Shown one piece after another: positions 4,071 through 61,014 of a DNA stretch of 64,000 bases. The stretch lies in contig OY969706.1 in assembly GCA_963702095.1 (NCBI GenBank), positions 2,752,001-2,816,000 of the forward strand, read 5' to 3'. Position numbers and translations under genes: made by a program. How positions within the stretch are numbered: the first letter of the stretch is position 1; every line of letters starts with the position of its first letter. The DNA is from Candidatus Bathyarchaeota archaeon. GTDB lineage: Archaea > Thermoproteota > Bathyarchaeia > Bathyarchaeales > Bathycorpusculaceae. Under the pieces are notes generated by a model. It searched no databases. It saw nothing but the letters and a program-made list of their open reading frames with translations, and was not told where the DNA came from.

Positions 4071-4226
4071 CTTTGGTTCTGCTTGTGGTTTGCGCCTCAA
4101 TCAACCTGCAACCCATCTCTGTTGCAGAACGCAAAACACAGCCGTTCACCAAGCCCCTAAGAAGATGATGAGCAAGGGCGGCACTCTCTTCTTCTAATAT
4201 AGAAAAAACAAAAAAGCCCAAATTTG
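4071..4226 (-). repeat. Dispersed intergenic repeat family A, copy 1
   Basis: The reverse complement carries the core TTAGAAGAAGAGAGTG..GCCCTT.CTCATC.TCTTC...GGCTTGGTG...GGTTG.TTGAGG...CCACAAGCAG shared with four other loci. Confidence 0.85.
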
Positions 4227-4280
4227 AGCTACTGTTAAAGGCGCAAACCTTATTTCAAGGAGGCAAGGCTACATCGAAAA

Positions 4281-10994: not shown

Positions 10995-11160
10995 ACACTC
11001 ACCACAGTAAGGGTTCTATTCAATGCAATTCTCAACAACACCCATATATAGATTAAGGTGCCCAAGCAAATATCGAGGACACTTTTCTCTGCTGAGTTAG
11101 AGATATAGGGCTAAGACAACATGCTTTTAGGCCCTTGTAGACATCTATAGAGTTAGCGTT

Positions 11161-11293
11161 TGTTTTTTCTAGTGTTAGATGAAGGCAGAGTGCTCCTTAC
11201 TCATCATCTTCCAGCGGATTTTGCTGCGGCTTGCTTTTTGGGTTTGGGCTTGCAGCGGCGTTGCAGGTTGGTTATGGCTGATTCCACAAGCAG
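11161..11293 (+). repeat. Dispersed intergenic repeat family A, copy 2 (diverged)
   Basis: TTTTTCTAGTGTTAGATGAAG...CCTTACTCATCATCTTCC...TTGCAGGTTGGTT...GATTCCACAAGCAG. Confidence 0.8.
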
Positions 11294-12814: not shown

Positions 12815-14624
12815 CTAAAAAAGCAGCAACAACAGGATAAGCAGCAGCCCCTCAACGCCGAAGATAACAGGAGCAGTCTTTTTTGCTTGCTCAATCGCTT
12901 TATCAACCAAGGTTGTGACGGAGTGCAGGCGTTCTTCGCCGATTACCCTGACCCCTGGAACAGTGAACTGGATGCAGCCGGCTTTTGATGCTTCAAGGTT
13001 CGCCGCTGCCTTCTTTGCCGCCTCCGTGATGTAGTTAAGGAGGACGTCGTGGTCCATGACTTCGCCGACTGGGTAGTATCCACGGCTAGTCCTCACTAAC
13101 GCGCTGACGGCATGGGTGTCGGTGGTGTAGACTTCGCTTTCTACAAAACCCAGCGATGAGAGAGAGGAGAGGATTTTTTCTCTAAGGTGGGGCACCATGT
13201 TGTTTCCGTCAATGATAACGTAGATGTTTTGTTGTTTTTGAACTTCGACGGCGATGGCTGTTATTCCGCCTGTGCCCATGCCCTGCTTCAAAGTGAACTC
13301 ACTGGGGAACACTGTAGCGGCACCCACCAGAAAAGTTGAGAGGGGCAACTGGGTGGCTTTTTGGATGCATTTGGATGCTGCCCGCTTCAACTCCTCCAAG
13401 TGCTCCGCAGTATCATCTATTACGTCGAGGCAGTTGTGGCAGTTAACGACCACCGCATGCTTAAGTCCATATTTTTTGGCTTCCTCGGTTACGATGTGGC
13501 CTACGTTCTTGGGGCAAGTCCTCGGTGGTTTTGGGTGCAAGCGAGAAAGAAAGGAATACTGTGTCGCCGAAGATTTGGCAGTTTGCGATGGCGCAGCCGT
13601 CGGTGGCGCGGGTAAAGGGTGAAGCTAAAGCAGAGGATGCTTCAAATCTTGCGTGGAATAAAACCTCGTTGACTATTCGGTGGTTTGCAGCTTGGGAGGC
13701 TAAGTCTTGTTCATGCCCCAGAATACCCAGCGGCGTGCAAGCGTCGCAACCGTACTCTTTTTCGAAATCCGCTTTTAGCATTGAGGGTAGAAGGCTGCTT
13801 CCGATGTTTTTGAAGGGTCCCGGATGAACTTGGGGCACTATAATTGCCGCTTTAGGTTTGGACGTGTCGAATTTGAGTAAGCTTACGTCTATGTCGGCGT
13901 TTTCACCCATCTCTTCAAGGTACTTCTCCAGCGGCGTGTTCAGGTCGGCTACCCAGTTAAGCAGGAATGCTTTGAATAGGTGCATGGCGGGTAATCCATA
14001 GGTTTTCTGTCCCAATCGATCTATTGAGCGAAGAAAGAGGTAGGTTGCGGCGTAACTGATTATCGGAGCCAATATGATGAAGGGGAGAAACTGGAGCGGG
14101 AGGCTCTCTGTGATTGTTGTCCAAAAAACAAGCAGAACCGATATGGAGAGAATCGGTTGTAGCAGAGCAGAAGTGATTTGCCGCCATGTGGCTCCATCCG
14201 ATGTTGCACTTACCACGAGTGCCCTCAGAGTTATAACGGCTGCAAACCCAAGCAGGGTAAGCTTAACCCACAGCAGCCAACCGAAAAAGTAGCCCAGCCC
14301 CGCTCCTAGAGCCATTAATGCAAGCCAGAGTAGCCAGCAGTAGAAGGACATGCCCGCTGTTCTACGTGGGTTAAAGATGTGGTCGCCTCTGAGAAGCGCT
14401 CTGTTCATGGTTAAATCGGCGATTAAGGTTACGGCAAAAAGGGAGATGCCCAGTATGAGGCTGTTGAGGCTGGGGAAGAGTGCGTATGCGGTGAGGGTGA
14501 CGCCTATTATGCAGGTGGCAGCCATCGAGAGGAGGGCTTTTCTGTAGGAGGGCATGAAGAACAAAGACGAGTAGTGTTTCTTTGCATTGTCCATAGAACT
14601 ATTAAGGGAGCGGTTTGTTTCCAT
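12815..14624 (-). pseudogene. DUF2070 family membrane protein, split by a +1 insertion near 13505 (possible sequencing error)
   Basis: HPGPFKNIGSSLLP is in the upstream ORF; NCHN, DGNNM and TTDTH are in the downstream ORF. Removing one base in GAACGTAGGC restores TTEDLPQE(L/V)GHIV. Confidence 0.8.
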
Positions 14625-22707: not shown

Positions 22708-22740
22708 GCAGGTCACATATAAGCGAAATGCTCGGGAGAA

Positions 22741-22840
22741 CACATCACAGATGCATCACAAAGCTGTGATATCAAGTGATTTCGGGCTAAATCACAGCTT
22801 TTTGGTGATGTCACGGTGATTTTTTGGTTAAATCACGTTG
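22741..22840. repeat. GTGAT/ATCAC motif cluster 1 (putative iterated protein-binding sites)
   Basis: Eight GTGAT/ATCAC in about 95 bp (22744, 22755, 22766, 22776, 22791, 22805, 22816, 22832), including the near-palindrome GTGATGTCAC. Confidence 0.75.
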
Positions 22841-23186
22841 AGATTAGCAGGAGGATAATGTATTTTGGTGTTAGATTTGGGCTGAAAAAGTGTGTGTTAT
22901 TTCGCTGGGAATGTAAAAAAATGGGCGGGAGAGGGTTTGAGGTGTTTGCAGAAGTGCGTTTTTTGTGTAAAGTTGAGGCATGTGGATGGTTGAAATTACC
23001 GAGGAATTTAGCCTTTTTCATGTTAAATGGTCTAAAACTATCCTTAAATCGTCGGGCAAGGTATTAATCGGCATATTTTTGTGAATTAGGGCAAATTTAG
23101 CCGTTTTTTTTATCGATATAGCGGGTTTTGTGGGGGTGAAAGGATAAAAACAGGGGTTAGTATACAAAACTGTATCCATTTGGACT

Positions 23187-23684
23187 ATGGAGGAAAACAG
23201 TGGTTTGAAGCTAAAAGACGGGGTAACAGCATGGTTAAATGGGGCACTAAATGACCCCATCGTACAAATACTGGCTAAAAACAGCCAATTAACAAAAACA
23301 CAGCTAGAAACGCTACTCATTGACGTTTTATCTGAAAATATATCGGGGAAACAGCTAAAATACGACGATAAAGCCGCATTAAGGCTAACAAAGGCTAAAA
23401 TAAGTCGCGGTAGCTTTAATAGGACTTTAAAACAGTCCCGCGAAAACGTCATTAAGTCCATCTACACAGTGCTACTTTTAGGGTATTTGGGAGTTTTTGA
23501 GACAACAACTCTCGACCCGTACCTCGAAATAGCCAATAAACTGCACGAGTACGTCGATGCACACCAGGACGTTCCTATCAAGGAAGAGGAACTAAAAGAC
23601 CATCGAAAAGTCATAGAAATCATCAGAAATGAGCTTGAAACGAGCCTAAAACGGCTTTCTAGCCCATCAGAAGCCCCCCTGTGA
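23187..23684 (+). CDS. Uncharacterised HTH-like protein (165 aa)
   Basis: SQLTKTQLETLL...KISRGSFNRTLKQSRENV resembles a helix-turn-helix followed by a helical bundle. Confidence 0.7.
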   Translation: MEENSGLKLKDGVTAWLNGALNDPIVQILAKNSQLTKTQLETLLIDVLSENISGKQLKYDDKAALRLTKAKISRGSFNRTLKQSRENVIKSIYTVLLLGYLGVFETTTLDPYLEIANKLHEYVDAHQDVPIKEEELKDHRKVIEIIRNELETSLKRLSSPSEAPL

Positions 23685-24000
23685 TGTCACAAATCACAGG
23701 TTTATCCATCTTTTTATGTATAAATTGAAGGAAAAAATAACCGTTCCTACAGGGCTATATTCAAGGGCTAATTTCCTAAACAGGCTCAAATTTCAATCTT
23801 TTCAACCTATGGATAGGCCATTAAGAGAGCCAACTATAAAGTTGTGATCTGTGATGTCATTCTTGCATGTGATCAGGTCACCGATAACCTTAAATTTCCA
23901 TGGGAATTAGTGTGATGTGTGATGCAACCGTTAAAATCACGGGGAATCACGGTTGAGTCACACATAAATCACGGGGGAAGAAATCACGGTTGACCTCACA
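23681..24000. repeat. GTGAT/ATCAC motif cluster 2
   Basis: Eleven GTGAT/ATCAC (23681, 23693, 23844, 23851, 23869, 23912, 23919, 23936, 23946, 23968, 23983), a second GTGATGTCAC, and a tandem AAATCACGGGG..AATCACGGTTGA unit. Confidence 0.75.
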
Positions 24001-24009
24001 CCATTAATA

Positions 24010-24777
24010 TTGGCTGTTTTAGTAGCTGTTACAGCGGTAGCTGCCTATGAATACTACAAGCATATTCGAATGGCACACAAAGAATACGAGAAAGCCAAAG
24101 ATTTTCTAGAAGATATCGTGTTGAGTTTTGATCGAGAACTTAAACGTGAATCAAACAAGTTTGACACTATGGTATCAAAGGTAGAGGGAAGCCACAACAC
24201 AGCTGATGTCAGCTACAGAAAAGCTGAGCGATTAGAACTCAAAATCGAGCCAATGGAGGAGCAGCTTGGCGCCCTCACTCAATCATACCAGGCGATGTCA
24301 CAGACAGTCACAGAGGAACTAACAGAAAACACGCAAAACAACACAAGAGTCCTCTCAGGGCTCCAAGGCTTAGAAGCAAAACTCAAAGACATCGACGTGG
24401 CGCAGGAAACTCTCAAGAACAAAATCTCAGGCCTTGAAGAGCAAATCCAGAAGATAGCCACTGCCCCGCCGCCTCAACCAGAATTCAGAACAGAAGTTGT
24501 GTTGCCGCCTATACCCATCAAACGGGACAAAGCCCTAGCCGCCCTCACAGAAACCGAAATCCAAGTGCTTGAAATGCTCTCAAAAGAGGGCTCTAAGACT
24601 GCACCTGAAATAAAAGAGAGAGTACACCTAAGCCGGGAGCACACTGCACGGTTGATGAAGAAGCTCTATGAAAATGGGTATCTCGAGAGGGAGGCAGGCA
24701 AAATTCCCTTCCGCTACAGCATAAAGAAGGAAATGGAAGCACTGCTACAGAAAGTAGAGAATCCACCAGCAACATAG
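24010..24777 (+). CDS. Predicted membrane-anchored coiled-coil protein with C-terminal MarR-like winged helix
   Basis: Hydrophobic N-terminus, about 130 aa heptad-rich region, Pro-rich linker, then LTETEIQVLEML..TAPEIKERVHLSREHTARLMKKLYENGYLER. Confidence 0.8.
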   Translation: MAVLVAVTAVAAYEYYKHIRMAHKEYEKAKDFLEDIVLSFDRELKRESNKFDTMVSKVEGSHNTADVSYRKAERLELKIEPMEEQLGALTQSYQAMSQTVTEELTENTQNNTRVLSGLQGLEAKLKDIDVAQETLKNKISGLEEQIQKIATAPPPQPEFRTEVVLPPIPIKRDKALAALTETEIQVLEMLSKEGSKTAPEIKERVHLSREHTARLMKKLYENGYLEREAGKIPFRYSIKKEMEALLQKVENPPAT

Positions 24778-24822: not shown

Positions 24823-24970
24823 TACTTGTAAAATCAGCCTCAACCAGCCTACAGCCCGTTTCCGTTACAGAACACAAAACACAGCCGCCCACCAAGCCCA
24901 TAGGAAGAAGATGAGTAAGGGCAACACTCTCTTCTTCTAACACTAGAAAAACAAAAAAGCCCAAATTTTG
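24823..24970 (-). repeat. Dispersed intergenic repeat family A, copy 3
   Basis: Its reverse complement is identical to copy 4 over about 83 nt. Confidence 0.9.
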
Positions 24971-26201: not shown

Positions 26202-27800
26202 ATGGGTGAAGAGGAACAACTGCAAAGAGCAATCGAAGCAACAATCGCTGCAGGTTACCAGTTAAACAGCGAAGCCTTCGAGTTCCTCATCCAAAACTCT
26301 CAAACCAACGACCCCATGGCAGTAATGAATTTGGTGCTAGAGCGGATGGCTAATCTGGCGGATAAGCCGATGTTTATCGAGCGCAGTTTCTTAGAAACAG
26401 TGGTTCAGCAAGCAGCTATGGCTGTTGCAGAAGTTGTTTATGAGCAGCCTCCCGCGCAGGCGCCCACAGTTCAGCTGTACCCAAGCTACCCCGAGCCAAC
26501 GGCGAAGCCACAGATCAACGCTGCAGATTCGTTCTATCCCTATGCCAAAGACATCGCCTCTGACCTCAAAATCCTCGACGACTCCACCGGCAATCTAACC
26601 TCCAACGGCACCCTCAACGAATATATGGGGCTTTTTCAGGACCGATTTAAACGGGTCGAGAAAATATTGCGCCAAAGAATGGATGTTAAAGCAGCCACCC
26701 CTATAGTGGAAGCCCTCAAATCGCAGCCTAAAACCAAACTAAAAATCATCTGCATGCTAACTGAGAAGCGGGACTCCAAGAACAATATGATCCTCTCTGT
26801 GGAAGACCTTCATGGAAGCGCAACCGTGCTTATCCCTCAGAAGGCACCTGAAGAAGTAAAAAGGAAAGCGCTCATGCTATTGCCGGATACAGTGTTCTGT
26901 GCAGCCGTCATTAAAACCCGAACCAACCTCTTGATGGCAGAAGACATTATTCTTCCAGAAGTAGGCAAAAAAATACCCCAGCGGGCGCAGGAGCCAGTGT
27001 ACGCTGTACTTACCTCAGACACACATATTGGCAGCACAAAATTTACCAAAGAAGCCTTCCGCCGCTTTATCCTTTGGCTCCGAGGCAAATACGGCACGCC
27101 TGAGATGCGGGAAATTGCGGGCCGAGTCAAATACCTGCTTATCGCAGGCGATATAGTTGACGGCATCGGAATTTACCCCGGGCAACAGAACGAAATCACC
27201 ATACGCGATATCCACAAACAATACAATTTTGCCATTAAGTATCTCGAGAAAATTCCCAGTTATATCGAAATCGTGCTCTCGCCCGGCAACCATGACGCCG
27301 CACGCAAATCACTGCCTCAGCCAGCCATACCCGAAGGCTACCTGTCGGCAATCAAAGACAAACCCAATATCCACAGCGTCGGCAGCCCCTGCCTACTCAG
27401 CATCCATGGGGTAGAAGTCCTCATGTACCATGGCCGCAGCTTAGACGACATTATCTCCGTCATCCCAGGCATGGATCATGAGCACCCCGATAAATCAATG
27501 CGGCTTCTCTTGCAGAGCCGGCACTTGGCACCGGTATATGGTGGAAAAACAATGCTTTCCCCAGAGAACCGGGATTACCTAGTCATCGACAGAGTTCCCG
27601 ACATATTCCATGCGGGACACGTACACGTCAACGGCTTGTGCAACTATCGTGGTGTGTTGGTTGTTAATTCGGGCGGTTGGCAGGAACAGACGGATTACAT
27701 GGAAAAGTTGGGGTTGGTCCCCACTCCCGGAAAGGTGCCGGTTGTGAACCTACAAACTATGGAGACCACGATTTTAGATTTTATTAATCCGTTATTCTGA
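26202..27800 (+). CDS. polB: DNA polymerase D small subunit DP1 (proofreading exonuclease)
   Basis: SDTHIGS, AGDIVDGIGIYPGQ, PGNHD, YHGRS and GHVH phosphoesterase motifs. Confidence 0.97.
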   Translation: MGEEEQLQRAIEATIAAGYQLNSEAFEFLIQNSQTNDPMAVMNLVLERMANLADKPMFIERSFLETVVQQAAMAVAEVVYEQPPAQAPTVQLYPSYPEPTAKPQINAADSFYPYAKDIASDLKILDDSTGNLTSNGTLNEYMGLFQDRFKRVEKILRQRMDVKAATPIVEALKSQPKTKLKIICMLTEKRDSKNNMILSVEDLHGSATVLIPQKAPEEVKRKALMLLPDTVFCAAVIKTRTNLLMAEDIILPEVGKKIPQRAQEPVYAVLTSDTHIGSTKFTKEAFRRFILWLRGKYGTPEMREIAGRVKYLLIAGDIVDGIGIYPGQQNEITIRDIHKQYNFAIKYLEKIPSYIEIVLSPGNHDAARKSLPQPAIPEGYLSAIKDKPNIHSVGSPCLLSIHGVEVLMYHGRSLDDIISVIPGMDHEHPDKSMRLLLQSRHLAPVYGGKTMLSPENRDYLVIDRVPDIFHAGHVHVNGLCNYRGVLVVNSGGWQEQTDYMEKLGLVPTPGKVPVVNLQTMETTILDFINPLF

Positions 27801-29024
27801 GTTTTTACGGGTGTTTTTTGGCTCGTACTGGAGTAGTGGGCTAAAGCGGACGTCGCCGCCAAAGACATCGCGAATTAAGCCTCGGCTGATTTCTAAACGT
27901 ATCTTCTTGGTTCTGCCGTACCTGCCCATGCTCACGACTTTGGCGTTGACCAAACCCATCGAATCCAACTCGTTAACCAAGGTGCCCAGTCGCCGCTGAG
28001 TTAGCAATCCAGCGCCCATTTCACCGCATAACTCATTGTAGACATCGTAGATTTCGCCTGTACTCGCGCTTGGCTTATTGAGGTGGTAGACGCTTAGCAG
28101 TACCAATTTTGAGTGCAGGGTTAAGTTTTTGAGGGCTTCTACGACACGGTTGTGCTCGATGTGTTTTTCAGCTTGTCGCACATGTTCCTCTGTGATGGTT
28201 TTTGCTCCTTGCCGCTCCGCAACTTCGCCTGCAACACGCAACAGGTCCAGGGCACGTCTGGCGTCCCCGTGTTCGGCGGCTGCAAGCGCAGAGGAAATGC
28301 TAAGAGCTGAATCAGAGAGAACGCCGTCTTGGAACGCCAGTTTGGAGCGTTCAAGCAATATGTTACGGAGTTCTTCTGCGTCGTAGGGTCTAAACACGAG
28401 TTCTTCTTCGCTAAGTGAACTAAAGACTCTGGGGTCGAGGAATTCTTTGAGGCGTAAGTCGTTGGATATGCCGATGATGGAGACTTTGCTTTTGTGGAGG
28501 GTTTCGTTGATGCGGGTGAGTTCGTACATGAAGGCGTCGCCTTTGTCCTTGATTAGGGCGTCGACTTCGTCTAGGACGATGATAAAAATTATTCTTGACT
28601 GGTCTAGCCCTGATCGGAAGCGGTCAAAAACTTCACCTACCGACAACCCAGTAAAGGGTATGGATAAGCCTACGCTTTGGCTTAAACTGGCAAAGACACG
28701 GTACTCCGAGCCAGTCATTCGGCAGTTGATATAGCAGAATTTGACTTGGGCACCGTACTCTTTAGCCTTTGATTCCAAGTGGCTCAAAACATATTTTGCG
28801 ACCGCGGTTTTTCCTGTGCCGGTTTTGCCGTAGATGAAAATGTTGGAGCATCGGGCGTCTCTTAGAACAGGCGCTACAGTTGAGCCTAAAAGACGAATCT
28901 GGTCTTCTCTATGTGGAAGCTTCTCTGGAATATAGTCATGTCGAAGAACCTCTCGGTCTTTGAACAGTTTTATACCGTGAACGAAGTTGTCGAATACGTC
29001 GTCGAGTACACTTGAATTTCCCAT
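27792..29024 (-). CDS. cdc6: Orc1/Cdc6 replication initiator
   Basis: LPHREDQI, Walker A GKTGTGKT, LDEVD, GDARRALDLL and C-terminal GRYGRT wHTH. Start MGNSS at 29024. Confidence 0.97.
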   Translation of the reverse strand: MGNSSVLDDVFDNFVHGIKLFKDREVLRHDYIPEKLPHREDQIRLLGSTVAPVLRDARCSNIFIYGKTGTGKTAVAKYVLSHLESKAKEYGAQVKFCYINCRMTGSEYRVFASLSQSVGLSIPFTGLSVGEVFDRFRSGLDQSRIIFIIVLDEVDALIKDKGDAFMYELTRINETLHKSKVSIIGISNDLRLKEFLDPRVFSSLSEEELVFRPYDAEELRNILLERSKLAFQDGVLSDSALSISSALAAAEHGDARRALDLLRVAGEVAERQGAKTITEEHVRQAEKHIEHNRVVEALKNLTLHSKLVLLSVYHLNKPSASTGEIYDVYNELCGEMGAGLLTQRRLGTLVNELDSMGLVNAKVVSMGRYGRTKKIRLEISRGLIRDVFGGDVRFSPLLQYEPKNTRKNSE

Positions 29025-29170: not shown

Positions 29171-29628
29171 ACACCCCAAGGTTTCGACTGGAAAAAAAGT
29201 CACTAAATTATAAATTCATATTAATAATATATAATAAAATATACTCTGAGTGATAAATAGGCTTTTTATATATTAATTATTATCATCAAAGAAATTAGAC
29301 ATTTCTTCTGCAAATATTTTTTCAGCCTCTCTAGACTTCTTTTCTGCCAAAAAATCGTCGACTGGAAACATAGGGGTGTCTCTTCATCGATAAATCCATG
29401 GAAATCAATATAAAATCACTGCTTAACCGCTATCTTGGCTTATGGCCAAACTAACTTTAACTTGAACAATTTTGTCACCAAAGTTATCGGTAACTTCACA
29501 TTCACAAAACTGTGAACACATGTGAAATAGCATTAAATCTGCCGCTTTATCTAAGCGGTTTTTCGCTGAATTACCCTAATTCTGTTCTACTACAGAGAAT
29601 AAGGCACCCCTTGACTTCTACTGGAAAA
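29171..29628. other. Replication origin (oriC): ORB elements and AT-rich DNA-unwinding element
   Basis: ORB-like boxes on the minus strand at 29171-29194 (TTCCAGTCGAAACCTTGGGGT), plus strand at 29357-29379 (GTCGACTGGAAACATAGGGGTG) and minus strand at 29605-29628 (TTCCAGTAGAAGTCAAGGGGTG). The first two flank a very AT-rich stretch at 29200-29340. Directly upstream of cdc6. Confidence 0.88.
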
Positions 29629-29801
29629 TCCAAACTAAGCCATACAGACTGGGCTTTTACGGTGTCGTTTCCTTGTGAAGCTGGTTATTCCATAAACAAT
29701 CCAGAAAAAAACTATTTAGCTATTATACGCCTAAATTAGCCTTTTTTTATTGCCATGTTTCACCATCACAGTTATAAGTTGTGAAGTGTAAAGATTGTGA
29801 A
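29495..29801. repeat. TGTGAA/TTCAC motif cluster upstream of the 142-aa wHTH gene
   Basis: Motifs at 29495, 29501, 29511, 29521, 29674, 29759, 29780 and 29796. Two more lie just downstream of the gene (30273, 30292). Confidence 0.6.
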
Positions 29802-29820: not shown

Positions 29821-30249
29821 TTGCCGGCTCGTAAAATACGCGTAGAGCTCTTCGATAGCGATGGGAATCGATACACTATCGCTTTTGAGGGTCAAGTGAC
29901 CCGTGACAAAGCTCTGCGACTGCTTGACCTCGTCGAATTGCTAGGCGGTGCGCCAAGCGAAGGCCCAACAGTTAACAGCGGTCCAGCAATGCCTAACCGT
30001 GCACTGTCCCGTTTTGAGAAGGTGCAGTTGGTTATTCAGAAAAATTTTCCGTTAATCTGGTTTTCATCGAAGGAGGTCCAATCAGTCTATGAGCAGGAAC
30101 TCAAAGAACCCGTCAGTTTGAGTACAATCTCAACCTATCTCTCACGTATGGCCGGCAAAGGCTTGCTGCTTAGGACCGGTAGTTCAAACAGCCTCAAGTA
30201 CAAGACAGCGCCAAACATTCCACAGGCAATAAAGCAACACATAAAGTAA
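29821..30249 (+). CDS. oriC-adjacent uncharacterised winged-helix protein (142 aa)
   Basis: Small N-terminal beta-beta-alpha domain, linker, then WFSSKEVQSVYE..VSLSTISTYLSRM..KGLLLRTG wHTH. SD-like GGTG before TTG. Confidence 0.8.
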   Translation: MPARKIRVELFDSDGNRYTIAFEGQVTRDKALRLLDLVELLGGAPSEGPTVNSGPAMPNRALSRFEKVQLVIQKNFPLIWFSSKEVQSVYEQELKEPVSLSTISTYLSRMAGKGLLLRTGSSNSLKYKTAPNIPQAIKQHIK

Positions 30250-30310: not shown

Positions 30311-30460
30311 GTTTTCTTTTTTTCTAGTGTTAGAAGAAGAGAGTGTTGCCCTTACTCATCTTCTTCCTATGGGCTTGGTGGGCGGCTGTGTTTTGTGTTC
30401 TACACTAGAAAGGGGTTGCTGGCTGGTTGAGGAGCAAACCACAAGCAGAACCAAAAAACC
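30311..30460 (+). repeat. Dispersed intergenic repeat family A, copy 4
   Basis: TTTTTCTAGTGTTAGAAGAAGAGAGTGTTGCCCTTACTCATCTTCTTCC...GGCTGGTTGAGG..CAAACCACAAGCAGAACC. Confidence 0.9.
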
Positions 30461-60810: not shown

Positions 60811-60945
60811 TTTTGTTTTTTTAATATTAAGAAGAAGAGAAGATGCCCCTTACTCATCATCTACCCGCGGGCTTGGCAGGCAACTGTTTTTTTGCGTCAG
60901 CGTTTGAGATGCATTGCAGGCTGGTTGAGGCGATTCCACAAGCAG
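60811..60945 (+). repeat. Dispersed intergenic repeat family A, copy 5
   Basis: TTTTTT..TTAAGAAGAAGAGA..CCCTTACTCATCATCT..GGGCTTGG..TTGCAGGCTGGTTGAGGCGATTCCACAAGCAG. Confidence 0.82.
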
Positions 60946-61014
60946 ATAGCGGGTTAGGCGTATTCACACCAAAAAATATAACTACTGTGACATTAAATGT
61001 AATCCCGGTAACAT

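Follow-up and report, generated by a model that had tools for sequence, protein, structure and literature searches.

How are archaeal chromosomes positioned and separated, and why should a gene for a membrane-anchored DNA-binding protein lie beside a replication origin? According to the available text of a 2024 review, the way in which SegAB drive segregation is not understood, nor is it clear that they are essential (PMC7617429). In Sulfolobus, replication has been proposed to involve a membrane tether, with no candidate named in the part of the paper available (PMC3384333). The window analysed here, a stretch of 64,000 nucleotides, covers positions 2,752,001-2,816,000 of a single 2.94 Mb contig that belongs to Bathyarchaeia by the names of its homologues. 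The gene order is DP2, GGGP synthase, Elf1, NadE, nitrilase, an orphan gene of 165 aa, the membrane winged-helix (wHTH) gene, phoU, DP1, cdc6, oriC and an orphan wHTH gene of 142 aa, where DP2, GGGP synthase, NadE and nitrilase were named from translations. The origin and the ends of an inverted block are located as follows.

27792-29024, minus strand: orc1/cdc6 initiator gene (Pfam Cdc6_lid and Cdc6_C)
29171-29628: oriC, with three ORB-like boxes and an AT-rich unwinding region, recognised by sequence patterns
24838-24958: dispersed repeat copy at the left end of the inverted phoU-DP1-cdc6-oriC-142-aa block, 91% identical, inverted, to 30312-30432
30312-30432: second dispersed repeat copy of the same pair, at the right end of the inversion

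The ORB-like boxes (29171-29192, 29358-29378 and 29605-29628) lie on either side of the AT-rich stretch, upstream of cdc6. The cumulative GC skew peaks and the gene-strand bias switches near 2.75-2.85 Mb, in line with an active origin. The preliminary description placed the membrane wHTH gene about 4 kb from oriC; the measured distance from its stop codon to the ORB boxes is 4.4 kb, but this distance is derived rather than ancestral because of a local inversion. Judging from the assembly, the block from phoU to the 142-aa gene is inverted here between the two repeat copies, whereas the sister locus L002 (90% identical) has the uninverted order and one repeat copy. In relatives with neither the inversion nor a nurA-herA insert, oriC is about 1.4 kb from the start codon of the gene. 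The repeat is about 130 bp long, MITE- or REP-like, and has more than 100 BLASTN matches in the genome; more copies are found in the window near 4094-4232, 11159-11241 and 60811-60946. A second cdc6 paralogue, 31% identical, is located at G000:C1:835530-836717 near the opposite GC-skew switch, and two single intergenic GTGA-type sites (G000:C1 833492 and 833830) about 2 kb from it may be due to chance.

What kind of protein does the gene encode? Its parts are listed below.

23986-24777, plus strand: gene for a 263-aa protein with a membrane helix, a coiled coil and a winged helix, with a probable ACG start by same-genus start-codon comparison
23995-24048, plus strand: membrane helix, residues 4-21, a predicted N-out/C-in signal anchor by hydropathy and charge bias
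24073-24456, plus strand: predicted coiled-coil stalk, residues 30-157, by 3.5 periodicity and a single helix in the model
24457-24525, plus strand: Pro-rich disordered hinge, residues 158-180, by pLDDT
24526-24759, plus strand: winged helix, residues 181-258, with recognition helix R217-E-H-x-x-R222, by Pfam, AlphaFold2 and Foldseek

The reading frame is open upstream to 23971, and translation probably starts at ACG 23986 rather than at TTG 24010. ACG is found at the start position in 25 of 30 same-genus loci, the other five having TTG, GTG or ATG, and a purine-rich ribosome site precedes it by about 8 nt (23973-23977 here). Of 432 Thr codons in the body of the gene only 66 are ACG, and the ACG start is kept even where the overlapping DNA motif is lost. 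A start at TTG 24010 would remove 8 residues, and the database gene call P0001 (235 aa) omits the whole membrane anchor. A soluble start at ATG 24070 was rejected as the general form, the Met at this position being present in just 4 of 30 same-genus loci.

The hydrophobic N-terminus followed by basic residues in the preliminary description is present, once the start codon is corrected to ACG: T/M-V-D precedes a 17-residue hydrophobic stretch (mean Kyte-Doolittle 2.5), which is followed by YEYYKHIR. Sec signal peptides carry a positive n-region. In all 27 membrane-bearing rows of alignment A4 there are no K or R residues before the helix and 2-5 after it, and the net charge before the helix is zero or less. 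From hydropathy and charge the helix is predicted to be an N-out/C-in anchor, and a cleaved signal peptide is ruled out by the charge pattern. Only 1-10 residues precede the helix in the 27 rows, which agrees with the earlier observation that there is no extracellular or ligand-sensing domain. The roughly 130 residues of heptad-like sequence were also borne out: hydrophobicity in residues 30-157 peaks at a period of 3.5 with a power of 13.3, a value reached by none of 1000 permutations, AlphaFold2 models residues 5-157 as a single helix, and stalk insertions of 14 and 21 residues in relatives are whole heptads. The Pro-rich hinge is where it was expected, with pLDDT below 50 at residues 157-178. 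The C-terminal MarR-like domain matches Pfam MarR (PF01047) at 33.4 bits against a cut-off of 24.6 and TrmB at 31.1 against 25.6; in AlphaFold2 it has a mean pLDDT of 82 (pTM 0.31) and is flanked by short helices only. Foldseek searches with this head returned only generic MarR, ArsR and AspA wHTH matches of 13-25% identity. R217, E218, R222, K225, R235 and Y244 are invariant in 43 rows with a mean column identity of 20%. A sequence search of solved structures gave generic coiled coils only, and protein atlas matches were the family's own hypothetical clusters.

The family is found well beyond this genome. A 43-row profile matched 171 of 301 Thermoproteota genomes at E 1e-8, with a single match in all but one, and 54 of 61 relatives have family matches; at E 0.001 a profile search of the whole library returned 1591 proteins, unnamed. 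Seven families without PolD (70 genomes) gave only the matches in G131 and G205, which are probably spurious, and the profile search found no gene in the PolD-bearing families f14, f25, f40 and f42. The gene is therefore dispensable. About 20 kb was fetched round 80 matches, picked for diversity and not at random, and one locus (L087), which matched the coiled coil only and had no recognition helix, was excluded from all counts, leaving 79 loci. The membrane helix is encoded in 50 of these. The membrane anchoring in the preliminary description thus holds for the helix-bearing proteins, whose N-termini are unlike signal peptides, but not for the 29 loci in which the helix is missing, and which keep the head and the origin position. 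Helix-less forms of f23 and f29 start with a short hydrophobic-basic leader. A search seeded with helix-less forms returned Methanomethylicia, Culexarchaeum and Nezhaarchaeales records first, followed by Bathyarchaeia and Nitrososphaeria; bacterial titles were found on 2 of the 71 records, and these two (L229 and L230), which encode the family, are probably misbinned archaeal contigs. The orthologue from Nitrosopumilus maritimus is ABX13693.1. Database names are MarR family regulator or hypothetical, and literature searches, with subscription papers and the supplements of PMC10269533 outside their reach, found no paper describing the family.

The next question is which DNA such a protein would bind. 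Three groups of GTGAY/RTCAC sites are located near the gene.

23844-23999: main GTGAY/RTCAC array, the densest cluster in the genome, 12 sites per 200 bp
23681-23697: small group of GTGAY sites, including a GTGA-N2-TCAC palindrome, where the upstream gene ends, from sequence
22713-22836: satellite GTGAY array about 1.2 kb upstream, the second densest cluster, 10 sites per 200 bp

Genome-wide, GTGA/TCAC clusters reach 12 sites per 200 bp (at 23843) and 10 (at 22712), the next having 7, and no GTGAY array was found elsewhere in this 2.94 Mb genome. The main array covers a putative TATA box (23886-23894; the promoter is inferred from sequence), the leader, the ribosome site and the start codon. 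In the 300 bp before the gene the mean number of sites is 11.1 in 20 Bathyarchaeia loci (1.9 expected), 11.6 in 12 f19 loci (2.1 expected), 6.6 in 20 helix-less loci (1.8 expected), 4.4 in 7 f26/f31 loci (2.1 expected) and 1.6 in 9 f23/f29 loci (2.2 expected). Upstream regions of other genes have no site excess. A triple-repeat pattern had five of five matches at the locus in G052, none of four in G227 and no match in G067. The sites are commonly spaced as the GTGA-N2-TCAC palindrome (39), as direct repeats of 7 bp (53) or as repeats of 10-11 bp. In relatives with an aminotransferase gene the satellite array is inside that gene (nine of nine loci), and the sites there exceed what protein sequence and codon use account for (p at most 0.01 in all nine). 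In f19 all 12 loci have sites within the part of the gene that encodes its wHTH, by the codon-choice test, for which L085 gave no valid result in its own coding region, and no control gene of 37 reached p 0.05. GTGAY sites thus appear to be written into coding sequence through codon choice. An RNA hairpin in the leader has some support from folding (z -1.99; 6 of 200 shuffles as stable) but is not favoured, because the arrays have periods of 7 and 10-11 bp and also occur inside genes.

The arrays can be assigned to a protein by elimination. Of the 79 gene-bearing loci, 53 have at least nine sites per 300 bp (43 of the 50 helix-bearing and 10 of the 29 helix-less ones), while all 14 loci without the gene, from four families, have only 4-8 sites per 300 bp, as compared with 2-9 in random windows. 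The gene-less loci include a clean deletion between the two neighbours, and one of them (L150) has a weak family match at E 3e-4. The f14 loci have lost the gene together with both arrays but keep both neighbours. The arrays are kept without the 165-aa gene in f24, where that gene is absent from all 23 genomes, and without the 142-aa gene in f13; L104, with neither neighbour, has 11 sites. The f23 loci have no arrays, and six of the seven have another residue in place of R217; in f29 R217 is kept and the arrays are weak. The genomes are kin and therefore these counts are not independent. Since the arrays track this gene and not either neighbour, the winged helix of the membrane protein is the likely GTGAY binder.

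The two neighbours have motifs of their own.

23187-23684, plus strand: upstream co-oriented orphan gene, 165 aa, possibly sigma-4-like HTH, with no Pfam or NCBIfam match, in 154 of 301 genomes
23160-23177: palindrome of the ATACA-N4-TGTA type, private to the 165-aa gene, whose 6-mers recur in 17 of 19 upstream regions
29821-30249, plus strand: origin-side orphan winged-helix gene, 142 aa, a tail-to-tail neighbour in most relatives, in 201 of 301 genomes
29415-29800: sites of a different motif, the GTGAA type, upstream of the 142-aa gene, retained after loss of the membrane-protein gene

GTGA is followed by A in 83% of 120 sites at the 142-aa gene; at the membrane-protein promoter, T or C follows in 78% of 203. 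With GTGAA sites among the ORBs, the 142-aa protein is a candidate origin-binding protein in its own right. Since each orphan gene comes with a distinct motif, the three genes need not be one machine. A fold search with the 165-aa model gave no clear match (Z about 6), and a sequence search of solved structures gave nothing for either neighbour. A complex prediction with two copies of the membrane protein and two 165-aa proteins (score 0.00, mark 0.32) speaks neither for nor against binding. The 165-aa frame abuts or overlaps the membrane wHTH gene in f26/f31 and L106. In many Bathyarchaeia a nurA-herA-like pair, named from translations, is located between the membrane wHTH and 142-aa genes (L049:7079-9614; L034:10346-12932, where herA is split); it is absent here. 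An HTH-CBS gene is found directly upstream at L086:8653-9306, L088:10330-10968, L107:9122-9736, L121:7969-8586 and L141:6451-7104, and a similar gene remains in f25 after loss of the membrane wHTH gene; it could make the origin cluster responsive to energy charge. In L086, L091, L093, L103 and L104 the helix-less form has a gene for a DUF2070 membrane protein no more than about 5 kb away; in L095 and L127 it does not. The product of this DUF2070 gene is a possible membrane partner of the helix-less form. The window ORF 13461-14624 resembles this gene by eye, is only 387 aa long and may be frameshifted.

Is the origin linkage of the gene anything more than the persistence of an old gene cluster? 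The usual order in relatives is the 165-aa gene, the membrane wHTH gene, then the tail-to-tail 142-aa gene, oriC, cdc6 and DP1. A weight matrix was adopted because a strict ORB pattern matched nothing in five genomes, and it has a match within the fetched stretch in 68 of 79 loci. The matrix was trained on 61 sites from cdc6-bearing loci and so only cdc6-free loci, some of which end at contig ends, are an independent test; these have 39 ORB matches in 121,735 bp near the gene and 11 in 393,327 bp further off. In L086 and L095 ORBs adjoin the gene though the cdc6 orthologues are 190 and 116 kb away, respectively. By these matches, the linkage appears to follow the ORBs rather than cdc6. The gene adjoins ORBs even after rearrangements that removed cdc6, the polymerase genes or both neighbours, and in f39 and f50 gene, arrays and ORBs are together where neither orphan neighbour was found. 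The linkage of homologues to origins therefore holds for most loci but not for all: seven untruncated loci (five of f26/f31, L100 and L102) have no ORB within about 10 kb, and in three f26/f31 genomes checked the gene is 12-33 kb from cdc6. These rearrangements bear on the suggestion that the protein is an ordinary MarR/TrmB-type regulator, as the database name has it, carried in an old cluster in which the GGGP synthase and Elf1 genes are also conserved, and that its proximity to the origin is functionless. This is very improbable, as the gene stays by the ORBs after such losses and the protein has neither the size nor the layout of MarR.

A membrane protein with its own DNA arrays beside the origin suggests an origin-proximal anchor between DNA and membrane, similar to RacA and RicO, that also represses its own gene, and we put the chances of this reading at about even. 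The stalks would pair in parallel, and the flexibly held heads would bind GTGAY half-sites of mixed spacing and orientation. Binding of two or three arrays about 1-7 kb from oriC would keep the DNA near the membrane and may loop it, and coverage of its own promoter together with a weak ACG start would hold the copy number low. Helix-less forms may be brought to the membrane by the short leader or by a partner, in the way that DivIVA brings RacA there. Binding of arrays 1-7 kb from oriC by a membrane-inserted protein would hold the bound DNA at the membrane, whatever purpose this served. The likely output is position, either placing and separating sister origins or gating access to oriC, with no motor of its own; it is the simplest output because there are no sites elsewhere and gene, arrays and ORBs persist together without both neighbours. 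Several observations count against the anchor. The helix is missing in 29 of 79 loci, several lineages have lost the gene and stalk length varies; the main array is in an operator position and both neighbours have private operators too; and the sites, unlike ram and ricS sites, do not extend over hundreds of kb, with no site excess 10-300 kb from oriC and no dispersed ram- or ricS-like sites found. The preliminary description proposed a rigid tether rather than a one-component regulator. The lack of a dispersed regulon favours its second half, but the array at the gene's own promoter is operator-like and "rigid" is unsupported because of the disordered hinge and a recognition helix placed anywhere from residue 91 to 229 across homologues, so that the stalk is not a ruler of constant length.

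Some looping repressors have operators inside genes, LacI O2 being an example. It is possible, though on balance rather unlikely, that the protein is a transcription regulator bound to the membrane, which represses both its own promoter and the operon gene upstream of it and uses the other arrays as auxiliary operators for looping. It would sense something in the membrane or be freed by proteolysis of the hinge, replication would time its expression and tethering would be a side effect. In favour of this, the main array does extend over the promoter, the leader and the start codon, each of the three orphan genes has a motif of its own, soluble forms are encoded in 29 of 79 loci, several lineages have an HTH-CBS regulator gene immediately upstream, and the protein fits the definition of a transmembrane transcription regulator as given in the available text of PMC10269533. 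However, only 1-10 residues precede the helix, leaving no outside sensor, and there is no sign of a dispersed regulon, intergenic palindromes outside the locus (4 of 25) being like control patterns (4 of 33 and 4 of 31). With no array elsewhere in the genome a pure regulator would regulate almost nothing but itself, and in f39 and f50 the arrays remain by the ORBs although neither neighbour was found. A role in replication timing, in which the protein keeps the newly replicated origin region sequestered at the membrane, or blocks both transcription and Orc1 loading round oriC, and does not serve segregation, would suit a gene that follows the ORBs and not cdc6, is found only within PolD-bearing families and sits in a DP2-DP1-cdc6 cluster. 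It is improbable, as the GTGAY arrays are outside oriC and the sites among the ORBs are of the GTGAA type that tracks the 142-aa gene.

What is described here, from comparison of genomes, is a deeply conserved, undescribed, origin-linked membrane protein with its own predicted DNA arrays, and a candidate origin-to-membrane anchor whose arrays vanish where the gene is lost. A broader reading of the anchor, which we offer tentatively, is that it belongs to an ancestral, motor-less centromere-and-anchor system of PolD-bearing Thermoproteota, in which the membrane wHTH protein binds a compact centromere by oriC, fixes origins to the membrane and serves segregation in Bathyarchaeia and ammonia-oxidising archaea. 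If so, it would be the first origin-membrane tether described in archaea. It would not explain the Sulfolobus tether, since the family was not found in PolD-less families. No ParA is present in the cluster, none of 100 neighbours scanned is a Walker-type ATPase of this kind, and the nearest PF13614 match in G000 is about 104 kb away; full-length ParA/MinD-like matches are found elsewhere in G000, a strong one in G084 and partial ones only in G227, and a full-length ParA match was lacking in the one complete genome of Nitrosopumilaceae type that was tested. A long SMC-like match is present in 4 of 5 genomes tested. Even as a regulator, this would be an ACG-started membrane protein, predicted to be DNA-bound by oriC across much of the phylum and undescribed in the papers searched. 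The finding provides a protein and a motif, together with a key residue (R217), natural deletions and, from the cultured species Nitrosopumilus maritimus, an orthologue.

How does the family compare with known systems? MarR proper is soluble and about 140 aa long, with the dimer and the ligand pocket built from its terminal helices. The winged-helix core is shared, but a protein of 263 aa with a membrane helix and a 128-residue stalk does not have this layout. The omega protein of plasmid pSM19035 is a ribbon-helix-helix protein that works with a ParA and has no membrane helix. Its parS sites are arrays of ATCAC-containing heptads that lie over promoters in mixed orientation and double as operator and centromere. 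These heptads are similar to the GTGAY arrays in lying over promoters, while omega differs in its fold, its use of a ParA and its lack of a membrane helix. Transmembrane transcription regulators, as far as the available text of PMC10269533 describes them, also combine one transmembrane helix with an HTH domain. The present family differs from them in having a long coiled coil, no outside or non-DNA-binding sensor (none of 27 rows has a sensor domain outside the membrane), no target promoters found away from its own locus and a strict origin linkage. In the accessible part of PMC5120986, AspA-ParB-ParA of pNOB8 and SegAB of the Sulfolobales likewise have a centromere binder of the winged-helix type, whose gene is preceded by its sites; however, AspA is soluble, this cluster has no ParA/SegA ATPase or ParB, and this family was not found in PolD-less families. 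AspA (4rs8) is among the generic fold matches, with a TM of 0.70 by target and 20% identity. The repeated sites upstream of the candidate binder's gene are thus present, and a Walker-type ATPase beside the binder is not. UBP of Sulfolobus origins, with its ucm motif, is likewise a non-initiator protein tied to an archaeal origin motif, but by the available account (PMC12141716) it is a soluble beta-sheet protein with more than 300 sites and binds inside the unwinding region. RacA of Bacillus subtilis, in the text available (PMC4914108), has a small HTH head, a variable disordered linker and a coiled coil, clusters of sites near the origin and a role in anchoring origin DNA to the envelope. It differs in its N-terminal head, the lack of a membrane helix (it binds DivIVA), its 25 regions over about 600 kb and its restriction to sporulation, and no RacA structure was among the listed fold matches. 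RicO of Staphylococcus aureus, from what is available of the preprint (bioRxiv 10.64898/2026.03.06.710092), holds origins at the membrane with a DNA-binding domain, a coiled coil and a direct membrane anchor in one chain; its domain order is the reverse, its helix is amphipathic rather than transmembrane, and it has nine single sites over about 700 kb as compared with dense arrays within 7 kb here. Sites spread over hundreds of kb round oriC are a feature of RacA and RicO that was not found in this family, but their plan of a head, a flexible linker, a coiled coil and a membrane attachment is present in reversed order. Neither DNA-binding domain was among the matches listed by the sequence and fold searches of solved structures. 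The resemblance is thus one of plan.
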